DNA from: a virus
Lineage: Duplodnaviria; Caudoviricetes
IMG/VR virus record: IMGVR_UViG_3300013426_000014
Span: 64,001-128,000 of that record
Strand: one strand, 5' to 3'
Length of the DNA: 64,000 bases
Shown here: in pieces, positions 1,826 through 12,441 of the stretch
How the letters are laid out: every line of letters begins with the position of its first letter
How positions within the stretch are numbered: position 1 is the stretch's first letter
The notes under the pieces: generated by a model
Told to the model about the DNA's origin: nothing
Seen by the model: the letters and a program-made list of their open reading frames with translations, nothing else
Databases searched by the model: none
Translations under genes and position numbers: made by a program

Positions 1826-3778
1826 TTACTTCCTGTTGTATTTCCGCATACCCAATATCTGGTTGACCGCGGCAAACGAGCCAGTCAACTTTATTGTCCT
1901 GCCATGGTATTTCAACACAATGCCCTCCGTCGCATTCACGACGCCGCCGGCGTCACGGAGCCGACGAAGCTGGTCGTTCAGCAGTGCGATCTTATCAGAC
2001 AACCCCTCCGCCTTGATCGACTCGACAGTCTTTTCTATCTGATCCTTGAGTTTCCGTGACACATCCGCGCTGCTCTTATCGTTGACGAAACCAGAACAGC
2101 GGCGGATCACCTCGTCGCCAAACCTGATGAAAAACCGGTCGAGCGGGTCGACCACCTTTTTCACGGCGTCGGCCGCGGAGTTCTTGTCGAAGTCAGTAAT
2201 CGATTCAAACCTTCGCTTCATCTCAGCCTTGTCAACCGGATCCATACCGGAATCGGCGGCGGATTTCATCACCTCCACAGCGACCCGCTTTATGTCACGC
2301 ATATTCGTCTTTTTTGACTTGTCTATCCACCGGTCAAGCAACATGTCGCGCAAATCAGGATAATTATAGATAAACTTTATCTTCGACCTGGCGGTGATCC
2401 GCGTAAATCTCGCCTTCTTCCAGTCGCCGACGGTTGTCTCGTCCGGATCGGTATAACCGATCCCGTCCGCCGCGACCTTATTGAGCTCCGATATGAACCT
2501 GTGCGTCACGTTCCCGTTGTCGTTCAGCTGTTTCATGACGATCTTGTTCGTGCCGGACGCGGAGTCAACCTTCTCCGCGGCGGTGTTAACGATCTCCATC
2601 GTCTTATCATCCGCCGTCGGCTCAATCTCCTCGAATGTATCCGATTTCAGATGTCTCGTCATGTAGATGCGACAGTCATGAAAATACACGTGCACGCCAT
2701 CATACGGGATGACGTTGCGGTTGACCGGATTGATCACCTCGCAGTTGATCCACACGCGGTAATCAGAATCGCCCCCGCCGCGGTTGAAGAACACGGTCCT
2801 GTCCTTTATCTTGCGGAACACCATGTCGATTATCTTGCCGCCGGTAACAAACGCCTCCGCGACCTCCGGCTTGTCCGACCACTTCGCCGCCATGTCGTCG
2901 ATCGACATGCCGGATCCCCTTATGTCGGTGAGATTGCGGGCAAACACGGTCTTTCCTTTCTTATCGACGGACGCGAATATGTTCTGTCCATCAAGCTTCT
3001 CTGTTATGTCCTCGACATCGGCGCTGAACACATCACGCACGAGCCGTTTCAAATCGCCGAACGTGAAGTCGTTAATCTCATATGGATGCGGCAGATGCCC
3101 GGCCATCCCGCCCTCATTCAGCGCCGGCGCCGGCAAGACGGTGATGGATTCGGTCAGTGCGCTGTCATACAGGCCGGAATCTCGGAGAGGAAGAACCTCG
3201 CTCCTGATCGCCTTATAATATTCCTTGATATCAGCTGGCTTCACCACCCCTGCCGACAACATCCTCCTATACGCCGTCAGGAACGCGGCGAAGTCATCAG
3301 ACCTGACATCGTTCCTGACGACAGTCGACGATACCGGCCTGTTCTGATATCCGTCTGCCCGCGCGCCGTATGTCACAGGCGAATAATCGACTGGAACATC
3401 GACGGTCTCGACCCCGTCGACGGGATGCGTCTTAAAATACCTGATGAAGTCGTCGACCCGTTTCTTATCGTCACCCTTGCCGGATGATGCCATCGCGAAA
3501 CGGCCACGACCGCCCTCGACCGCCCTGTATACGGCGCGGACCGGGGACGCGTCCGGCGACAGCCAGACGCGGACACGCGGCTCATCTGCGAACACCTTGT
3601 CCATAAACGTCTTGGATGTATCTGCCTTTATTCCCTCCCTATCTGCTGACGAAAGCATTACCGTCACATCGACGTCATACCCATCAAGATTGAGATACTT
3701 CTTTATCTGTTCCCAATGTCCATCATGGAATGGCTTAAATGCGCCGGGATATATGACATGTAGTTTGCGGTTCATCAT
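1826..3778 (-). CDS. Fusion of a HIGH-type (cytidylyltransferase-like) nucleotidyltransferase and a ligase-superfamily nucleotidyltransferase domain
   Basis: N-terminal PGAFKPFHDGH (HxGH) and SSTVVR; C-terminal TEKLDGQN (motif I KxDG) and EGIVLK..IK (motifs IV/V). Confidence 0.7.
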   Translation of the reverse strand: MMNRKLHVIYPGAFKPFHDGHWEQIKKYLNLDGYDVDVTVMLSSADREGIKADTSKTFMDKVFADEPRVRVWLSPDASPVRAVYRAVEGGRGRFAMASSGKGDDKKRVDDFIRYFKTHPVDGVETVDVPVDYSPVTYGARADGYQNRPVSSTVVRNDVRSDDFAAFLTAYRRMLSAGVVKPADIKEYYKAIRSEVLPLRDSGLYDSALTESITVLPAPALNEGGMAGHLPHPYEINDFTFGDLKRLVRDVFSADVEDITEKLDGQNIFASVDKKGKTVFARNLTDIRGSGMSIDDMAAKWSDKPEVAEAFVTGGKIIDMVFRKIKDRTVFFNRGGGDSDYRVWINCEVINPVNRNVIPYDGVHVYFHDCRIYMTRHLKSDTFEEIEPTADDKTMEIVNTAAEKVDSASGTNKIVMKQLNDNGNVTHRFISELNKVAADGIGYTDPDETTVGDWKKARFTRITARSKIKFIYNYPDLRDMLLDRWIDKSKKTNMRDIKRVAVEVMKSAADSGMDPVDKAEMKRRFESITDFDKNSAADAVKKVVDPLDRFFIRFGDEVIRRCSGFVNDKSSADVSRKLKDQIEKTVESIKAEGLSDKIALLNDQLRRLRDAGGVVNATEGIVLKYHGRTIKLTGSFAAVNQILGMRKYNRK

Positions 3779-3890: not shown

Positions 3891-4550
3891 ATGAGCAACA
3901 CTATAAAATCAGACAAGATCGCGCTCGAGCAGCTGCTTAACTCGATATCGCCGGCGACACCGGGGGAGCAGAGCAATGGCGTGTCCGGCGCGGTAGATAA
4001 TAGCGGAGGCGCGCCGGTGGAGCCGGAACAGATCATCATATTCGACCGCGCCGGCGAGCAGAAGTCAGCGCGGAAACGAGCGAGAAATACAGTCAAGCTG
4101 ATGGCGCAACACGCCCTGCCGAAACCGTTGCTTGAAGAGGAATACGTGCAAAACAAAATGGAACAGGATGCGGCGACGCTGGCAGACCTGTACTGACAGG
4201 TCAAATCAAACTCGCTCGTCCAGAACGCGCTCCTCGACGTCATCGCCAGGGGAAATACCGCCCCGCGCAACTTTGAGGTATACACGCAGCTGACAGACAA
4301 GATATCCGCGTTGAGCAAGCAGATTCAGGTGACAGAGACGACGATGAGGAAGACGTATCTCGACCTGAAGCTGGAGATCCGCGACAAACAGGCAGAGGAG
4401 CGGCAAAACCTGGATGGACCAGTAGAGACGCAGCTGCAGGGAGGAAAAAGTCACAATGTCATAACAGGCGGCGGTAAACTCGCGGAGTTACTGATGTACA
4501 AACGAATGAAAACGCTCGAAGCCGCGCAGGACGGGCCGGACGAGCAATAA
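3891..4550 (+). CDS. terS: Terminase small subunit (T4 gp16-like)
   Basis: Two ORF fragments join across TGA 4194-4196; the joined segment has PRNFEVYTQL, resembling the gp16 PRxxEV motif; lies just upstream of terL. Confidence 0.7.
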
Positions 4551-4568
4551 AGGAACAACAGAGATGAT

Positions 4569-4934
4569 ATGATAAGGGAAATATACACCAGAGCGGCGGA
4601 CGAGACGGGATACAATCCGTCCGCACTCGAACACGACAGCGCGGTCGAAGAGATGGTTCAGAAGATCAAGAACCTGATGTCGACGTCGAACGGCGACGTC
4701 CTCGGCGACTACAGTTTCGGCGCGAACATAGAGGATCTTGTGTTCCGCACGGCAAGGGACGCGGAGGGAATAGAGTCTGACATATCGCGGCAGCTGACAG
4801 AATACGTGCCGACGCCACAAGGATGAACGATCACACCTAAGGTGAGATTCGGTCACCACGACGACGGATATGACTTCGCCGTGATAGACATATATATCAA
4901 CCAGAGGAAGGTGGAGTCGTTCCTCATAAACTAA
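4569..4934 (+). CDS. Baseplate wedge subunit, gp25-like
   Basis: KIKNLMSTSNGDVLGDYSFGANIEDLVF fits the gp25/GPW pattern; reads through TGA 4824-4826 to TAA 4932-4934. Confidence 0.75.
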
Positions 4935-4947
4935 ACCGGGAAAAGAT

Positions 4948-5517
4948 ATGGGAAAATTCGACAAGGACGGCAGTCAGCAGACGACCGGCCGCTCGCCGCG
5001 CGTGTGAAGCACAGAGCAGATAAACCAGATGATGACGGACTATGAAAACGGGTATGACATAGACTACTCGCCGTTCTTCGAGCACGACATCGACCTGAAG
5101 GCAGAGAACATCAGCTTCGACTACACGGACGCGGAGCTGGAAGAAATCGACAGGTGTTATAACGACCCGAAATACTTCATCGAGCGATACTGCAGGTGGA
5201 TGACGGACCACGGCATGCAGACGGTGACGCTGCGACCATACCAGAAGGAGCTCATAGACATAGTGACATCACAGGACTATGACGCGGCGAAAGACCTGCT
5301 TGTCCCGAAGAACCGTAACATCATATGAATGGCCGCGCGGCAAAGTGGAAAGTGTTGTTCTCCAATAAGTTACATATCATATAATGATAGCAATGCCGGT
5401 TTGTCAGAAAGCAAAACAAACAACTTTTATACAATCTGAAATAAATATAAAAAGCAAAAACGCACTTTGTTGTATCACATTAAAAATATGCTTTACTGAT
5501 TATATTCCAAATTATAA
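4948..5517 (+). CDS. terL: Terminase large subunit, N-terminal part fused to a split-intein N fragment
   Basis: DPKYFIERY, LRPYQKE (adenine-binding) and WMAARQSGK, then Cys at 5353 starting a 54-aa tail; four TGA read as Trp; TAA 5515-5517. Confidence 0.9.
5353..5514 (+). mobile_element. Split intein N fragment (54 aa)
   Basis: Cys1 directly after RQSGK; CCSPISYISY is block-A-like; sequence becomes AT-rich at the junction. Confidence 0.8.
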
Positions 5518-5522
5518 AGTTA

Positions 5523-6266
5523 ATGGAAATCAAAAAACGTAAAAAGAACAAACTTACAAAACATATCTGTATCGTGTGCGGCAAAGAATTCGAGGCGCGG
5601 CAAGGCGATGCGAAATTCTGCTCATATGAATGCGGCAAGCGATATCACGATCAGCAGGCGCTCGAAAAAAAGACGAGGTCGCTTCTCGAAAACGGCGTCG
5701 AGAATGTCGACTACATCATAGACAGGTGGAACGGTCTGCCGACCGTCCGGCTGTATGGCCGATGGTTTCGGAAAATGCATCCCGACCGCACGATGGATGA
5801 GTACAAGTCGGAATTCCCGGACGCGCCGATAACGATACCGAAAGACAAGGCCGCGACATCAAAGAATTCCGGCCAGTTCATGAAGAAACCGGAATACCGC
5901 GAGAAATATTCAAAGATGATGTCTGGTGAGAACAACCCGAATCATCACACAAAGGCGTCAGAGCAGAAGCGCAAGGAGAATTCGCCGTTTTCCAAAGAGT
6001 TTTATAAACGGAAAAACATGTCAGAATCGGACCGCGACATTTTTTTGACCGAAGTCGCGGAAAGCAGATCATACGCGGCGCAAATTGATTATTACATCGG
6101 CAAGGGAATGTCTTCCGAAGAGGCGGAGGTGGCGCGCGCCGAAAGACAAAGAACATGCGCGCTTAAACGTTTTATTAAAACATATGGTGAAGATGAAGGA
6201 ATGAAGAACAAGAAACAGGCGAAAACAATAAAAACAAATATGAATCGAGATACACGAAAAACGTAG
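5523..6266 (+). CDS. Free-standing homing-endonuclease-like protein, probably lacking its nuclease domain
   Basis: Zn ribbon CIVC..FCSYEC, NUMOD-like SGENNPN, FIKTYGEDEG repeat; position between intein halves; no HNH, GIY-YIG, LAGLIDADG or Vsr motif seen. Confidence 0.55.
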   Translation: MEIKKRKKNKLTKHICIVCGKEFEARQGDAKFCSYECGKRYHDQQALEKKTRSLLENGVENVDYIIDRWNGLPTVRLYGRWFRKMHPDRTMDEYKSEFPDAPITIPKDKAATSKNSGQFMKKPEYREKYSKMMSGENNPNHHTKASEQKRKENSPFSKEFYKRKNMSESDRDIFLTEVAESRSYAAQIDYYIGKGMSSEEAEVARAERQRTCALKRFIKTYGEDEGMKNKKQAKTIKTNMNRDTRKT

Positions 6267-6298
6267 AAGACAACATCGAAAAGTAAAAACAGACCGTT

Positions 6299-7279
6299 AT
6301 GAAAGACATGGATATCCGGAAATACTGACTATACCAGATATGGAAAGAATTCATCCACCGCGAATCGCCGTACATGGTGAACGAATCAATGGGACGGCCG
6401 GACAACATAGATATATGAGCCGACGCCGTATACAGAAAAATATCGGGCTGAATACAGGAAAGATACAAAGCCGAAGGGATCGGAGACAATCTGATCACGT
6501 CGGGAAGAATCATCATAGACAAAAACGATTTCGCCGGACGTGAATGCAAGGTGTTCTTTGACAAATGTGTGATAGACGTTGTTGCGAACATAGACATGTC
6601 CGGATCGTCGTTCGACGTGTCGTCCGCGAACTTTTATTACCCTGACAGAAGCGGCGTGCGCGCGGATGGGTCATACATGATATATCTCAAGTTCTTTCTA
6701 ATGGGCGACATCGATAAAGTGTTGGCAGATCTCCGTCCCGCGACGGCGCACGAGCTGACGCATGCGTATGTGGATTACAGGATGAATCCGGATGAATTGA
6801 TGAAAGACAGATCGGTCGGTGGGCTCGACCGGAATTTCGACAAAAAATTCCTGCACGGCGCCGCGGCAACAGATGACCCCGATATAAAGCTTATATATAA
6901 TATACTGTATTTCACGGAAAAAGACGAGATAAACGCGATGCAGTCCGAATTGTGGTCCGAACTTCTCAGGGGCAGAAGCATGATCGGAACATCTGCGGGA
7001 GCGAACGAATTATTAAAAAGGACCGAAGTGTATAAAAGGATGGAGTCGAACGAGAACCGTCTTCGCGAACTCCACCGCGTCACGGAGGAGGAACCGCGAA
7101 ACAAAATACTCGCTTTCTTCAATTCGGTTTTCCACTCGTCTGTCCCAGATTACTGGCGGATGCTGACGAAAGTCGACGTCATGTGAACCCGTGCGAGAAA
7201 CCGGTTGATGAATCGCGCGTGCAAATATATCGGTTATTTTCAGGACGTGAAGGACACGTACGGCTATATTCCATCATAA
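6299..7279 (+). CDS. Putative zincin metallopeptidase (HExxH), paralog 1
   Basis: Open across four TGA; AHELTHAY plus downstream EINAMQSE. Confidence 0.65.
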
Positions 7280-7299
7280 CCGATTCAAAGCGATAAGTC

Positions 7300-8286
7300 A
7301 TGGATATCAATCAATATATAAAAGAACATACTGCGCTGGAGTTCAAATACAGATCGCGATCATTATGCGAATCCGGTGGCGTTCCGGATTTCATAAGCGA
7401 CGCTGTCGACAGTTTGATGAACAGAATAATGGAAAAGATCCGGGCCGGCGAACGTGACCGATACGCGGACGGAATATTCGACATCAAAGCAGACGGATTA
7501 TTTTTCGACATATGCAGGATCGAAATGTCGATTTTGATCGACAAGCCATCCGACGCGGTGTCGATCTGCTGATCCGACGGCGGTTATGTGCCAGACCGCA
7601 GCGGCGACGCTGGCGGCAAATACATGATATACATATTGATTACAGCCGGCGGCAATGCAGACATGCTCGACGAAGAGATCCGCATCCTGCTCGCGCATGA
7701 AATAACCCACGCGTATAATGATTATATGACGCGGAACGCTGGGAAAATCAATCCGATACAATGCGGCCGGGCGGATGGGACAGTGCTTCACAAAAATTAC
7801 ATGAATCCGGATCAGATTATCAGATACATGCACGACATCATATATTTCTCGCTGAAATCTGAGACCAACGCGATGCAAAGTGAGATATTCATGGAGATGT
7901 CAAGAAAAAAAGGATACATGTCAGACCGGAACAACGTCGAAGCTGTCATGTCGGGCACGGCGGTGATGAAAAGGATAAAAAGAATAGCGGACGAGCTGTC
8001 ATACATTGAATCGTTGACGGAGCCGGACGGCAGAAAAAAGGCGGTGGACTTTTTCAACGCCGTATACCATACAAACGTGACGGATTTTAATTCGATAACC
8101 CGCAAAATCAAGACACTATTTTTCAAATCAAGAAGCAAAATAATCCAATCCGCATGCAAATCCGCGTTTATACTGCACGAGACATGATATGCGCCGGTCA
8201 GGATGAATGGAGAATGGCTCAATGTGTTCGACTGGACGCAAGTGAACGACGCGGACGCGAATACAGCAGAAACGATAATACAATAA
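7300..8286 (+). CDS. Putative zincin metallopeptidase (HExxH), paralog 2
   Basis: Open across two TGA; AHEITHAY plus ETNAMQSE; colinear with paralog 1. Confidence 0.65.
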
Positions 8287-8295
8287 CCGGATAAT

Positions 8296-8778
8296 ATGAA
8301 AATCAGGAAACTGCTAAAAATCATAGTCGGCAAATTCATAGAGAAGGCGGAGCGGTGGGAACTTCGGCATACTGATACTGGCGACGAGAACGATGTCTCA
8401 AAAAAGATAATTGACACCATCCCGGCGCCGGATCTTTCCGTGTCGTCTGACTCCGGCATGGTCCCTGTGACGGAGATACACCGCACGCGGCCGTTCACCG
8501 TATACGTCATAACGCTGGACGACGGCACGGAGATCGAATGCGCCGACAGGCATATCATGTACAAGGTGGACGACCTATCCGCGGCGAGTTTGCCGGAATG
8601 ACATGTTTATTCAGAATGCTTCGCGAAAAAACTTGTACCGGGTGACAAACTAGTAACGGAGAAAGGATATTCAACCGTCATATCCGTGGAAAAGATGCCG
8701 TACAGGATGTGTATGTATGATATGTCGGTGGCGACACAGGAGCACAGATATTACGTGAACGGCGTGCTTTCGCACAAC
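8296..8778 (+). mobile_element. Split intein C fragment (161 aa)
   Basis: Block B IECADRHIM, block F MYDMSV, block G YYVNGVLSHN, then Thr+1 at 8779. Confidence 0.9.
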
Positions 8779-10407
8779 ACGACAACAATGGCGTCTATTT
8801 TCGCTTACCTGCTGACGTTCATGAAGGACAGAAACTACATGCTGCTGGCGAACAAGGAAGCGACCGTCATCGAAATCGCGGACAAAGTCATACAAGTATT
8901 CAAAGGACTACCGTACTTCCTGAAGCCGGGATGCAGATCGTTCGGAAAGACCGGATTCCGGCTCGACAACGGATGCAGGATAATCACAGGAGCGACGACG
9001 AAGACGACGTCAATCGGTTTCACGGTCCACCTGCTGTATCTCGACGAGTTCGCGCACATCGACCCGACGATCGTCGACTCATTCTGACGGTCGGTATATC
9101 CGACCCTGTCATCGTCGGCCGTTTCGCAGTGCATGATCACGTCGACACCACACGGGGTAGACAACAAGTTCTATGATATATGGAGCAAATCGATGAACGG
9201 CGAGAACTCTTTCACACATTTCCGGACGGACTACTGGCAGGTGCCGGAGCACGACGAGGCGTGGGTCGCGAAGCAGAAGAAGGATTTCGGCGAGACTGAG
9301 TTCGCGCAGGAGTTCGAGCTGCAGTTCCACGCGGCGAGTAAGATGCTGCTCAAGCCGTCGGACTTCTCGTTCATCGAGCGAGTCGGCGCGCCGTTCGAGC
9401 GCAAGTACATCCCGTCAGACTCACCTTACTTGAACGATCCGGACCTTAAATGGGCGCCGGACTTTGACCCGAACGACGTGTCGCCGTCCGACAGGTTCGT
9501 TCTTCTCGTCGACCTGGCGGAAGGTAACGGGGACGAGGCGGTGGATGACACGAAGAAGAAAAGCAAGACAAGGACACCGGACTCAAACACCGTGCAGGTG
9601 ATGAAGGTCATCGCGAACAGTCCCGCTAACATCAGACGGTTCTCAGAGTCGGGCGTCACCATGAAAGACTCCGTCCGTTTCATCCAAGTCGGGACGTGAG
9701 AGAGCAACAGAAAAGACGAAGAATATTGCGGCAAGATGACATGCGCGCTGGCGCTCGATCTGCTGAAGGCAGCGGAAACAGACGGTGTCAGAGTCATGGT
9801 CGAGATGAACTTTCAGGGGAAGAACTATGTGACGTCAATGCGGCAGCATCCACTGTATTTCGACGGGCTGCTACAAAAGACATACCACACAAAACCTGTG
9901 CCGGGTGAGGTGAGAAGGAGAAGGATCGGATTCAAATCGGGACCGGAAAAGGAGCACTTCTGTCAGCTCGGCGCGAAGATGATAGCAAGACGGCGTATCG
10001 TGCCGCGTGACAGGACGACGCTTGGCCAGCTGGAGCAGTTCGGATATGTCAAGGGAAAAATCAAAGGAATCGCCTGTCATGACGATTTGTCATACCCAAT
10101 AATCAACCATATACCGGTCATGATGGATGACGAGACGTTCATGTCGTGGATCGAGGACTTTTTATACAACCTGACAGACGAGAAGAGGAAATACGAAATC
10201 AACATGTATATAAAAAAATGGGAGATGGAAAACCCAGAGATGACAGATGAATCATTTGCCGCGATGTACGGATTGAATGACAGATCAGAACTGTTCGGTG
10301 GAGGAATCAACACCGGGACGCCGTTCCAACAGTCGCAACAGCCGCAATACCAATATTATAATGGAATAAATCCATATTCATCCGGATATAACGGTGGATG
10401 AAGATAA
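8296..10407 (+). CDS. terL: Split-intein C fragment fused to the C-terminal part of the terminase large subunit (T4 gp17-like)
   Basis: After SHN come TTTMA, LANKEATVIEI, LPYFLKPG, Walker B LYLDEFAHI, F(TGA)RSVYPTLSS, ITSTPHG, FAQEFELQF and HDDL; four TGA; TAA 10405-10407. Confidence 0.92.
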
Positions 10408-10420
10408 TTACATTTTAATA

Positions 10421-10456
10421 AAATAAAACAGCGGTAAAATTACCGCTGTTTTATTT
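10421..10456. terminator. Bidirectional intrinsic terminator
   Basis: Perfect 17-bp inverted repeat aaataaaacagcggtaa/ttaccgctgttttattt between convergent genes. Confidence 0.8.
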
Positions 10457-10476
10457 AATAATTAAGTTGTTATTCA

Positions 10477-12441
10477 TTATTCATTGTCAGATTCATCATC
10501 AAAATATTCATCAGACTGATCATCATCCTCATTATCAAAATATCCGAATTCCATCAGATATTCTTTGTCCTCCGTATTATATCCGTTAATGTTATACTCA
10601 TCACAGTACTGTATCCACTCAGCCAGATTTTCATCATCGGAACAATCATACAGCATGGTATTTTCCCTGCTGCCGTATACCTTGAAATTAACGCGGCCGA
10701 AGTTCTTCCGCAATATATCCGTTATAAAACAAAGCTCGAACGCGCTGTAACCTATACGTCCTGGATGAACGCAGCTGTAACCACCGTCATCATATATCCA
10801 CACGGTCGGCCAATTTTCGCCGCCTGGCCGCGATCTCAGCGTCGGGATGAATGAGTCATCGCTAAACCAATATGACGAATTCAGTTCGGTGTATCCGTCT
10901 TTTATCATCTTAGGGACGACCAGCTCGTCACACGCGATCAGCAACGGCATGCCGTCAAGCGATTTCAGTGAGACGCATCTGGACAAATCGACGTCGCCGA
11001 CTACCTCTGATGGGCATCCGTCGAGCGAGACGATACCGATATTATCGTCATATGCAGTTCTCAACGCTAAATTACAGTCGCATTTGCCGAACCTTATGAA
11101 CGGCGGGAACGCCGGTATATCCTCGCGGGGATCATCACCGTCGAACAGTCATTCCGACTCTCTGCTGTAGCAGAGATCCTTCGCGGCAGATGAGACGTCA
11201 ATCACGAAACCGCCGTTCCCGGCTGGACGGAGTGTGAACAAATTCTCGCACGTATCCTCCGAATACGGCTCGTTCGAGCCATGCCCATATCATTCCATGT
11301 TGTCTCACAGTCAACGGTATATACTGGAACGTGTATCAGCGGATTCTATGTCGTCCATTGTGTCAGTGTAGTCCGTGTCGGACATATCCTCCATATTGAA
11401 ATCCTCATTGACTTTATCGGCGTCATATTTTGGCTGACACCACCCTTCGGCGGATTTCCGCTCTATGAGCCCGCTCAAATCCTTGATGACATCATCGATA
11501 TATTCACTGGGTATTTTCACGTCCTTTCTCAGCAGCGCTGAACACGGAACAGGACAAGCGCCCGGCCCCTTGTTTATATCGGCATACTCTATCATCTTCA
11601 GTGCGCCATCTGATCCGAGTTTCCCGGACCGAACGAGATCACGGATATGATTGAGATATGACAGCAGATCATAATACATCTGCTCGAGAATCTCCGTGTT
11701 ATTTTTGACTTTACCTTCATCTTTGTCATAGATATCAGCATAAAAATCCTGATGGTAACCATCATAATACTCGCTAAAGTCGAACGAGTGATCCTGTATG
11801 CTAATCACCCCAACCGGCGGGATTATATCGAGCAGCGCCCCGTCTGAACGGAGCGGTGGGTTGGCATCACTTGTCGAGAACACGCCACGGATCTTATCAG
11901 GAAACCACGACGGTACGGGATCACCGATATCGCCAAATACCCTGTCGGGATACAACGCGCCGATGTTGAACTCGGCGTCAACGACACCGAACTTGATTCC
12001 GGCGGCGAGGACGTCTGCCTCAGTCGAGTTGCCACCGGAATCGAACTCCGCCGCGACATATGTAATAGGGGGAAGACTCTCCGCCGGAAAGACGTCGTTA
12101 CCGTATCTTCCGATATTGATGACAAACACGTATTTTCCCGGCGACGTTAACCTCCACTCTATCTGTATATACGGGTCATCCTTCATCGCGTACGGTCCAT
12201 TCGTGTTTTCACCATACCCGGAAAATTCCGGATCCTTCGCGTAACGAAACGACGTACTTGTGCACAAATCATAATTATTATCCTGATCGACATATATTAT
12301 GACATGCCTGTTGATCCACCACCACACATGCTCGATCTCAGCGTTTATGTCGGAATCAGACAACACATCTGTGTAGTCGATGTCAGACATATCGGACATA
12401 TCAAAATCCTCATATACAACGCCAGTGCAACAAGATCGCAT
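10477..12441 (-). CDS. Acidic hypothetical protein with an internal duplication and a short LRR-like segment
   Basis: Open across four TGA; repeated VYEDFDMSDMSDIDYTD / VNEDFNMEDMSDTDYTD; SLDGCPSEVVGDVDLSRCVSLKSLDGMP; TATAAATA upstream. Confidence 0.7.

Follow-up and report, generated by a model that had tools for sequence, protein, structure and literature searches.

In a 64,000-nucleotide stretch of phage DNA (Caudoviricetes), here called the window and corresponding to bases 64001-128000 of the 269-kb IMG/VR virus record IMGVR_UViG_3300013426_000014 (estimated completeness 87%), the single T4-type gene for the large terminase subunit, terL, is very probably a fractured gene, in which a class-1 mini-intein occupies the GK/T position of the Walker A motif (the slash marking the insertion point) and is split near its own N-terminus. 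The two coding halves, TerL-N and TerL-C, are separated by three further open reading frames (ORFs). Here we describe the anatomy of the locus, its homology to a large intein family, an exact empty site in a related phage, the retention of the catalytic residues and the distribution of split and contiguous forms, all observed directly, and propose a mechanism in which the fragments would associate through a helical hairpin cut in its loop and ligate their exteins in trans. An earlier note, made from the DNA letters alone, had read the locus as a fractured TerL with an atypically split intein in Walker A; that core reading holds, with the class-1 assignment and the GK/T insertion judged from sequence, and its coordinates and motifs are borne out to the base on translation with TGA as Trp.

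Anatomy of the terL locus

Many genes of the window are ORFs only with TGA as a sense codon, and read in this way the locus comprises five same-strand ORFs with spacers of 5 to 32 nucleotides. Its features are as follows.

4948-5517, + strand: TerL-N (N-extein plus IntN), 189 amino acids with TGA read as Trp; TAA stop at 5515-5517
4948..5352, + strand: TerL N-extein, 135 amino acids, ending RQSGK, the first half of Walker A; TGA at W20 and W127
5353..5517, + strand: IntN, Cys1 plus 53 amino acids and TAA; two in-frame TGA; GC content 0.26
5523..6266, + strand: P3, 247 amino acids; zinc ribbon and the presumed non-catalytic N-terminal part of a putative Vsr-like endonuclease; no TGA; TAG stop
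6299..7279, + strand: P4, 326-amino-acid HExxH protein; four in-frame TGA
7300..8286, + strand: P5, 328 amino acids, paralog of P4 with motif HEITH; two in-frame TGA
8296-10407, + strand: TerL-C (IntC plus C-extein), 703 amino acids
8296..8778, + strand: IntC, 161 amino acids; extra N-terminal helix, linker DENDVSKKII and the remaining HINT fold; one in-frame TGA
8779..10407, + strand: TerL C-extein, 542 amino acids, starting TTTMASIF, the second half of Walker A; three in-frame TGA

Both TerL halves are called terminase large subunit by Pfam and PHROGs (N-extein, PHROG terminase large subunit, E 1.5e-16; C-extein, Pfam Terminase_6N, PF03237, E 2.8e-10). TerL-C gives the sole Terminase_6N match in the 269-kb record, which holds no second terL, and as the record's only TerL the split gene would be necessary to the phage. 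The insert, 5353-8778, measures 3426 bp. IntN comprises the opening beta-strands and first helix of the intein, followed by an additional long helix; the ATG of IntC lies 2779 nucleotides downstream of the IntN end, and blocks B, F and G are all on IntC, as ECADRH (block B, His86), MYDMSV (block F, Asp142) and the terminal VLSHN (His160-Asn161).

An exact insertion and a complete intein

The boundaries of the insert are fixed by a relative that lacks it. Contig L001 carries the same upstream genes and an uninterrupted 708-amino-acid TerL that reads AARQSGKTTTMASIFAYLLTF across the site (RQSGK-TTTMASIF). Residues 18-135 of the N-extein are 74% identical to this intein-less protein, and the C-extein is 71% identical to it in an alignment beginning at exactly the Thr+1 residue. 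Because L001 reads through the site unbroken, the insert is exact to the codon, between the Walker A Lys and Thr: Cys1 of IntN is Cys136 of TerL-N (5353-5355), directly after RQSGK, and Thr+1 is Thr162 of TerL-C, at 8779. The GK/T Walker A is restored only by joining the exteins, as it stands in L001. The same empty site, with RQSGK-TTT unbroken, is also present in L005, L006, L028 and L030-L032.

The intein itself can be recognized by comparison with P0007, an 881-amino-acid protein with a contiguous 194-amino-acid intein at the same site. The alignment of the N-extein to P0007 continues into IntN, which pairs with residues 162-206, and the match of IntC, which begins at its residue 4, spans residues 208-355 (46% identity, E 2e-47). 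As these matches run end to end, IntN and IntC tile one intein with nothing missing. In a separate test, IntN scored 22.2 bits on a profile built from the tails of 14 other TerL-N proteins, and the best of 2000 composition-preserving shuffles reached 11.9 bits.

All class-1 residues are present, namely Cys1, block B His86, block F Asp142, His160-Asn161 and Thr+1. The Cys1 column is invariant in alignment A2, and the His141, Asp185 and Asn204 columns are nearly so in family alignment A4; the block B Thr is replaced by Ala throughout the family (CADxH). The Thr at +1, which the earlier note had thought unusual, is no peculiarity, since Thr or Ser follows ...HN in 25 of the 25 tabulated family members.

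One intein family in every state of the site

The same note had suggested a possibly new intein. The intein is not isolated: a full-library search with IntC returned 653 protein clusters at E<=1e-3, so that the family numbers at least 653 clusters, including contiguous copies in cultured phages. Among the best 150 of the 653, about 117 match at the protein N-terminus, as expected of a split form, and about 33 match internally, as in a contiguous one. Some 30 TerL-N fragments of 193-220 amino acids have tails that stop at the same position with ...LYxxYxKL. Close relatives of the window's proteins (85-93% identity; P0006, P0008, P0039 and P0189), from other assemblies and in clusters of more than 100 members each, keep the same ORFs.

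Across dozens of phage contigs the Walker A site is found empty, with a contiguous intein or with a split one. Contiguous inteins occur in L004, L015, L017, L022, L024, L027, L033 and L034. The split layout, with 0, 1 or 2 gap genes, recurs in L003, L007-L009, L011-L014, L018, L025 and L029. It is without a gap gene in L007, L008 and L013: the gap of L007 is 115 nucleotides, and in L008 the TerL-N stop overlaps the TerL-C start (L008:6837-6842), leaving no gap at all, so that L007 and L008 correspond to the point in the gene-breaking model at which the endonuclease has been lost. One gap ORF of 325-399 amino acids is present in L009, L011, L014, L025 and probably L029, and two gap ORFs in L018 and L019. 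L003, a TGA-recoded contig from a different sample, has a single HExxH ORF in the order IntN, HExxH gene, IntC; its C-extein (67% identity) is the second closest of those fetched, after that of the intein-less L001. The family therefore shows every stage of the gene-breaking model at one site: empty, contiguous, fractured with an endonuclease gene and fractured after its loss.

Cultured phages belong to the same picture, with 321 GenBank records, from Ackermannviridae and other phages, matching IntC. Two that were opened, Vibrio phage Kuja (MN718199, 131782-134028) and Salmonella phage P46FS4 (MT078988, 18242-20452), have an unsplit intein; one Dickeya phage entry names its IntC-matching gene a 'pretoxin HINT domain protein'.

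Several relatives show further variation. In L014 (1551-1988) and L018 (12579-13019) IntC ends ...SLN, the penultimate His having become Leu, and the L014 IntC apparently starts with GTG. In L024 (5376-9291) and L015 (6644-9602) the TerL C-extein is interrupted again, after ...LLI/LLF in the Walker B region, by C-L-G/D-G-E..., in what looks like a second intein. The second tail of L024 reaches a stop about 35 amino acids after its Cys, with further TerL pieces 1.6 and 2.9 kb downstream, and these terminases may be made in three or more pieces.

The natural cut bisects a helical hairpin

Two split architectures can be distinguished within the family. In one, found in L013, L016, L021, L025 and L026, a short IntN of about 32-42 amino acids stops just past the first helix. 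In the other, shared by the window with L003, L007, L008, L012, L014 and L018, a long IntN of about 50-60 amino acids includes a further helix, and its IntC partner begins with another helix and a conserved LDENDxxKKI linker.

The fold was examined on a contiguous relative, that of L004 (tblastn identity to the window's IntC 42%), modelled with AlphaFold2 from a 31-row alignment with a mean predicted local distance difference test score (pLDDT) of 92.9 and a predicted template modelling score of 0.87. The model runs from two short strands through a helix (26-37) and a pair of helices (40-57 and 62-79, joined by a loop at 58-61) to a beta-rich HINT core. Its top Foldseek matches are VidaL (5.8e-10), PhoCDC21-1, gp41-1 and other solved inteins, with Cat at rank 29. 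A phmmer search of the PDB with IntC ranked the Cat IntC best (6DSL_B, E 3.9e-5), followed by gp41-1 and VidaL (0.25 for VidaL). The nearest solved relatives are VidaL (6VGV), by the fold search, and Cat, by the sequence search. The IntN of VidaL is 16 amino acids long.

Because the IntN end and the IntC start map to the 58-61 loop of L004, the natural cut bisects a helical hairpin. In L004 itself (10385-10975) the contiguous intein reads ...LYKIYW-MQITRNQ... at this loop, with a Met exactly at the IntC start of its split relatives, and it looks like a split intein that has been fused again.

A tree of IntC sequences parts hairpin-bearing forms from the others by one bipartition with support of 96/95. 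Split and contiguous forms fall on both sides, and the branches with good support require the state to have changed at least twice; the tree is otherwise poorly resolved, so this is a minimum and not a count of split/contiguous transitions. Judged from the conservation of the arms and from the model, the hairpin arms would help the fragments to find each other. A two-helix hairpin may first have been gained at the atypical split site and later severed within its loop, leaving one docking arm on each fragment, a device that may be likened to that of intein-less enzymes split by endonucleases, here placed inside a splicing-competent intein.

Genes between the halves

The first gap ORF, P3, begins with a zinc ribbon (Pfam and PHROG matches) and continues with a region, residues 71-227, that aligns by blastp to residues 11-166 of the 325-amino-acid gap protein of L014 (39% identity, E 7e-32). 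That protein belongs to one gap-ORF family of 325-399 amino acids with the first gap ORF of L018 and the gap ORFs of L009, L011 and L025. The C-terminal part of these relatives contains IEFxGDxWHxNP and a weak match to REase_MTES_1575 (E ~3e-3); they fit, though on weak scores, the Vsr-like (EDxHD) endonucleases of fractured genes, and a PDB sequence search with the family returned nothing relevant. The alignment of P3 is limited to residues 11-175 of its 325-amino-acid relatives, P3 ending before the region of the Vsr-like catalytic core, and nothing matching their nuclease domain was found beside P3 or in the rest of the genome. The earlier description of P3 as an endonuclease-like remnant was thus right, and with its homing endonuclease decayed the element is probably immobile in this phage. 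Two places elsewhere in the record, outside the window (genome C1:191839-192576 and C1:23665-24108), resemble the second gap ORF of L018 (Pfam DUF7487) and may be further free-standing endonuclease-like genes.

P4 and P5 had been described as peptidase paralogs. Their paralogy stands (30% identity, E 3e-38), as does the invariance of the HExxH motif, which reads HELTH in P4 and HEITH in P5; H151, E152, H155, E210, E217 and E221 are invariant in comparison with the single gap gene of L003 (36% identity), the last three being Glu residues downstream of the motif, among them a candidate for the further zinc ligand of a zincin. The peptidase part is less secure, since P5 matches Pfam Peptidase_M48 at 20.3 bits, exactly at the 20.3-bit threshold (E 5e-4), P4 has no match, and the fold gives none either: for an AlphaFold2 model of P4 with a mean pLDDT of 69, Foldseek found no PDB match at E<=1e-3 and VIA-align only generic helical bundles (Z<=6.6), and a PDB sequence search with the P4 family found nothing. 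On sequence grounds, metallopeptidase is the best guess for both. The two have one start context in common, AAGnCATGGATATC (6299-6316 and 7295-7308), and the true start of P4 may be 6308 (MDIRKYW), parallel to MDINQYI of P5.

The HExxH family has so far a very narrow distribution. A word-indexed search gave 6 clusters, all 73-98% identical, and the viral collection one contig; beyond this lineage and the L003 contig, neither search found a relative of the paralogs. A tblastn search of the whole genome with P4 and P5 (E<=0.01) detected no third copy. Restriction of the family to the gap, if real, would suggest a tie to the element and not random cargo, and its members may, for example, clear or process intein products or help the cassette to persist.

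Recoding, composition and regulation

TerL-N and TerL-C contain four in-frame TGA codons each, eight in total. Of the five in the exteins, two fall at positions where standard-code TerLs have an invariant Trp (that at N-extein residue 127 aligns with Trp in standard-code homologues) and two at positions occupied by Tyr, Phe or Val. These positions bear out the earlier proposal that both fragments need TGA to be decoded as Trp. P3 has no TGA, which means little given that it has just two Trp codons. A cluster of 33 transfer RNAs (tRNAs) lies outside the window at genome C1:202467-222425 and includes tRNA-Trp(CCA).

The GC content at third codon positions falls from 0.76 in the adjoining N-extein to 0.30 in IntN and is 0.65 in IntC; in six split relatives, too, no piece is richer in AT than IntN. 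A regulatory reading of this AT-rich segment found no support: the 5-nucleotide spacer before P3 has no TATAAATA late-promoter box and no hairpin, and the 5' junction shows no RNA structure beyond that of shuffles. A promoter and terminator scan stayed at background level, and no flanking repeats were found around the cassette. Upstream of the terminase block, a divergent 650-amino-acid ORF without in-frame TGA (1826-3778, - strand) occupies the same position in L001 (L001:2-1339).

Weighing the interpretation

Several observations weigh against the interpretation of the locus as a trans-splicing intein with docking arms. The 54-amino-acid IntN, compared by BLAST with the contiguous intein, gave no significant match, so that its homology rests on the profile test and its position. 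Its first residues are CCSP, in place of the family's usual C-x-x-[FY]-[ND]-T, a start that is common to a subgroup of relatives. The DNA of IntN is compositionally foreign beside the N-extein, and IntN may have been acquired recently, its fit to IntC being at most predicted. ARAGORN, run over the whole record (about 87% complete), listed 33 tRNAs, none with anticodon UCA. An electrostatic zipper between the hairpin arms was considered and rejected, both arms being net positive in most pairs, and the amphipathicity of the arms is only modestly above that of shuffles. Finally, co-transcription, association of the fragments through the hairpin and trans-splicing itself are steps that we infer.

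Some of these features would suit other explanations. Catalytically dead intein halves might merely keep the two TerL fragments in non-covalent contact. The helices added to both fragments at the break and the divergent, compositionally odd IntN could suggest this, and such repair of an endonuclease-split enzyme is documented (Crona et al., 2011, PMC3045599). Every class-1 splicing residue is nevertheless retained and conserved family-wide, relatives in the family splice in vitro (PMC11766414), and without ligation some 215 intein residues would sit in the P-loop between Lys and Thr, where they would be expected to block ATP binding; with every catalytic residue retained, we consider mere docking unlikely. 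The cassette of 3.4 kb might instead have destroyed the terminase of a defective or decaying phage, the apparent IntN being read-through of an AT-rich spacer. An intergenic-like GC content of 26%, two TGA codons within IntN and the truncation of the adjacent endonuclease gene are what such decay would leave, but the score of IntN on the family profile lies well beyond that of any shuffle, its end coincides with the stop position conserved in the family, the two reading frames run uninterrupted through eight TGA codons, those of the exteins lying mostly at Trp or aromatic positions, relatives of 85-93% identity from other assemblies keep the ORFs, and the record has no second terL. A dead gene is accordingly improbable.

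Explanations that place the break outside the protein fare worse still. This is a metagenome assembly and its composition changes sharply at 5353, as it might if foreign DNA had been misjoined into terL; against this, the breakpoints coincide exactly with intein block A and the end of block G, the order of IntN, HExxH gene and IntC is the same in L003, which comes from another sample, and both this IntC start (P0039) and this HExxH gene (P0189-P0194) are present in independent ENA and Logan assemblies. With the layout repeated in assemblies made independently and in another phage, an artefact of this sort is highly improbable. Phage terL and other essential genes host self-splicing introns with endonuclease ORFs, and a group I or II intron, or a bypass of the interval, could in principle join the halves at the RNA level. 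An Rfam scan of 4500-10800 found no intron or other relevant RNA family even at E<=1, the 5' junction is no more structured than shuffled sequence, and the intein blocks in the flanks are encoded with a stop and a start codon of their own, all of which makes RNA-level joining scarcely credible.

Proposed mechanism and implications

For the fractured, trans-splicing terL that we favour, the following course can be proposed. The five ORFs, 5 to 32 nucleotides apart on one strand, are most likely co-transcribed, and the TerL fragments would be translated only where TGA is read as Trp. The 54-amino-acid IntN and the 161-amino-acid IntC would then associate and complete the HINT fold, each contributing one arm of the hairpin. 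An acyl shift at Cys1, attack by Thr+1 and cyclisation of the terminal Asn would follow, and ligation of the exteins would yield a 677-amino-acid TerL with an intact P-loop. The gap would have arisen where a free-standing Vsr-like homing endonuclease gene landed; this gene then lost its nuclease domain, leaving an element that is probably no longer mobile; the gap would subsequently have taken up a lineage-restricted HExxH gene that later duplicated. More tentatively, and as a joint proposal that we regard as possible but doubtful, the hairpin clade would represent a natural fix for weak fragment affinity and the gap the only home of the lineage-restricted HExxH family.

The locus can be viewed as a selfish element at a late stage, with the intein fixed and essential, the endonuclease decayed and the gap reused. 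To mature its sole packaging motor, the phage would need both the recoding of a stop codon and the ligation of a protein, neither of them a standard step. Atypically split inteins are prized in protein labelling, and the hairpin-arm clade offers ready candidates for tighter-binding or differently specific split pairs.

Comparison with known systems

Elements of this kind are already known, as both fractured terminase genes and trans-splicing by AceL-TerL and GOS-TerL have been described, and the general finding is not surprising, since the arrangement as a class proved common in the searches made. What sets the present locus apart from characterised members, by their published description, is a split that bisects a hairpin, a decayed endonuclease accompanied by non-nuclease cargo and a recoded host genome.

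AceL-TerL and GOS-TerL, with IntN pieces of 25 and 37 amino acids, trans-splice experimentally and their IntN pieces are reported to be interchangeable; both are classed as low-affinity split inteins, and Cat is an engineered consensus of the two (reviewed in PMC11766414). Compared by published description and through Cat, they share with the window's intein a phage large terminase as host protein, a split before block B, a short IntN with a long IntC, and class 1. Here, in contrast, IntN has 54 amino acids (25 to 37 in theirs) and IntC 161 (about 104), each piece bears a hairpin arm, with the cut in the loop and an added IntN helix of about 19 amino acids, and the nucleophiles are Cys1/Thr+1, as opposed to Cys1/Cys+1 or Ser1/Cys+1 (PMC11766414). 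Hairpin-bearing forms stand apart from the short-IntN, AceL/GOS-like architecture on the IntC tree (96/95). Because AceL and GOS IntN pieces interchange, orthogonality of the present intein, which had been suggested, is not to be assumed.

Dassa et al. (2009, PMC2677866), the source of the gene-breaking model, described fractured genes with free-standing Vsr-like endonucleases, among them one gp17-like terminase locus found in Lake Gatun. The present locus follows the same plan, with N-host plus IntN, a free-standing gene and IntC plus C-host on one strand, short spacers and an endonuclease apparently of the same Vsr-like kind. It differs in the loss of the catalytic domain and in the two non-nuclease HExxH genes of the gap; control elements were reported there (PMC2677866), whereas the 5-nucleotide spacer here has neither the TATAAATA box nor a hairpin.

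The TerL inteins of the cultured Ackermannviridae Kuja and P46FS4 occupy the identical site (ARQSGK/C...SHN/TT) and belong to the same family, but are unsplit, lack the hairpin, use the standard code and are annotated just as 'terminase large subunit'. Work by Ivanova in 2014 and Borges in 2022 is said to have found TGA-to-Trp recoded phages in gut and rumen metagenomes. As in such phages, in-frame TGA in a structural or late gene, in this case terL, coincides with Trp or aromatic residues; the difference is that a suppressor tRNA(UCA) was not found in this 269-kb record.

A final parallel comes from the Aeh1 NrdA-a/mobE/NrdA-b system, in which, according to Crona et al. (2011, PMC3045599), the halves associate non-covalently and no intein is involved. 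There, as in the window, a homing-endonuclease cassette interrupts an enzyme essential to the phage, and residues added to each half at the break are proposed to serve reassembly; in contrast to Aeh1, the added helices of the present terminase lie within an intein that carries the full set of splicing residues.

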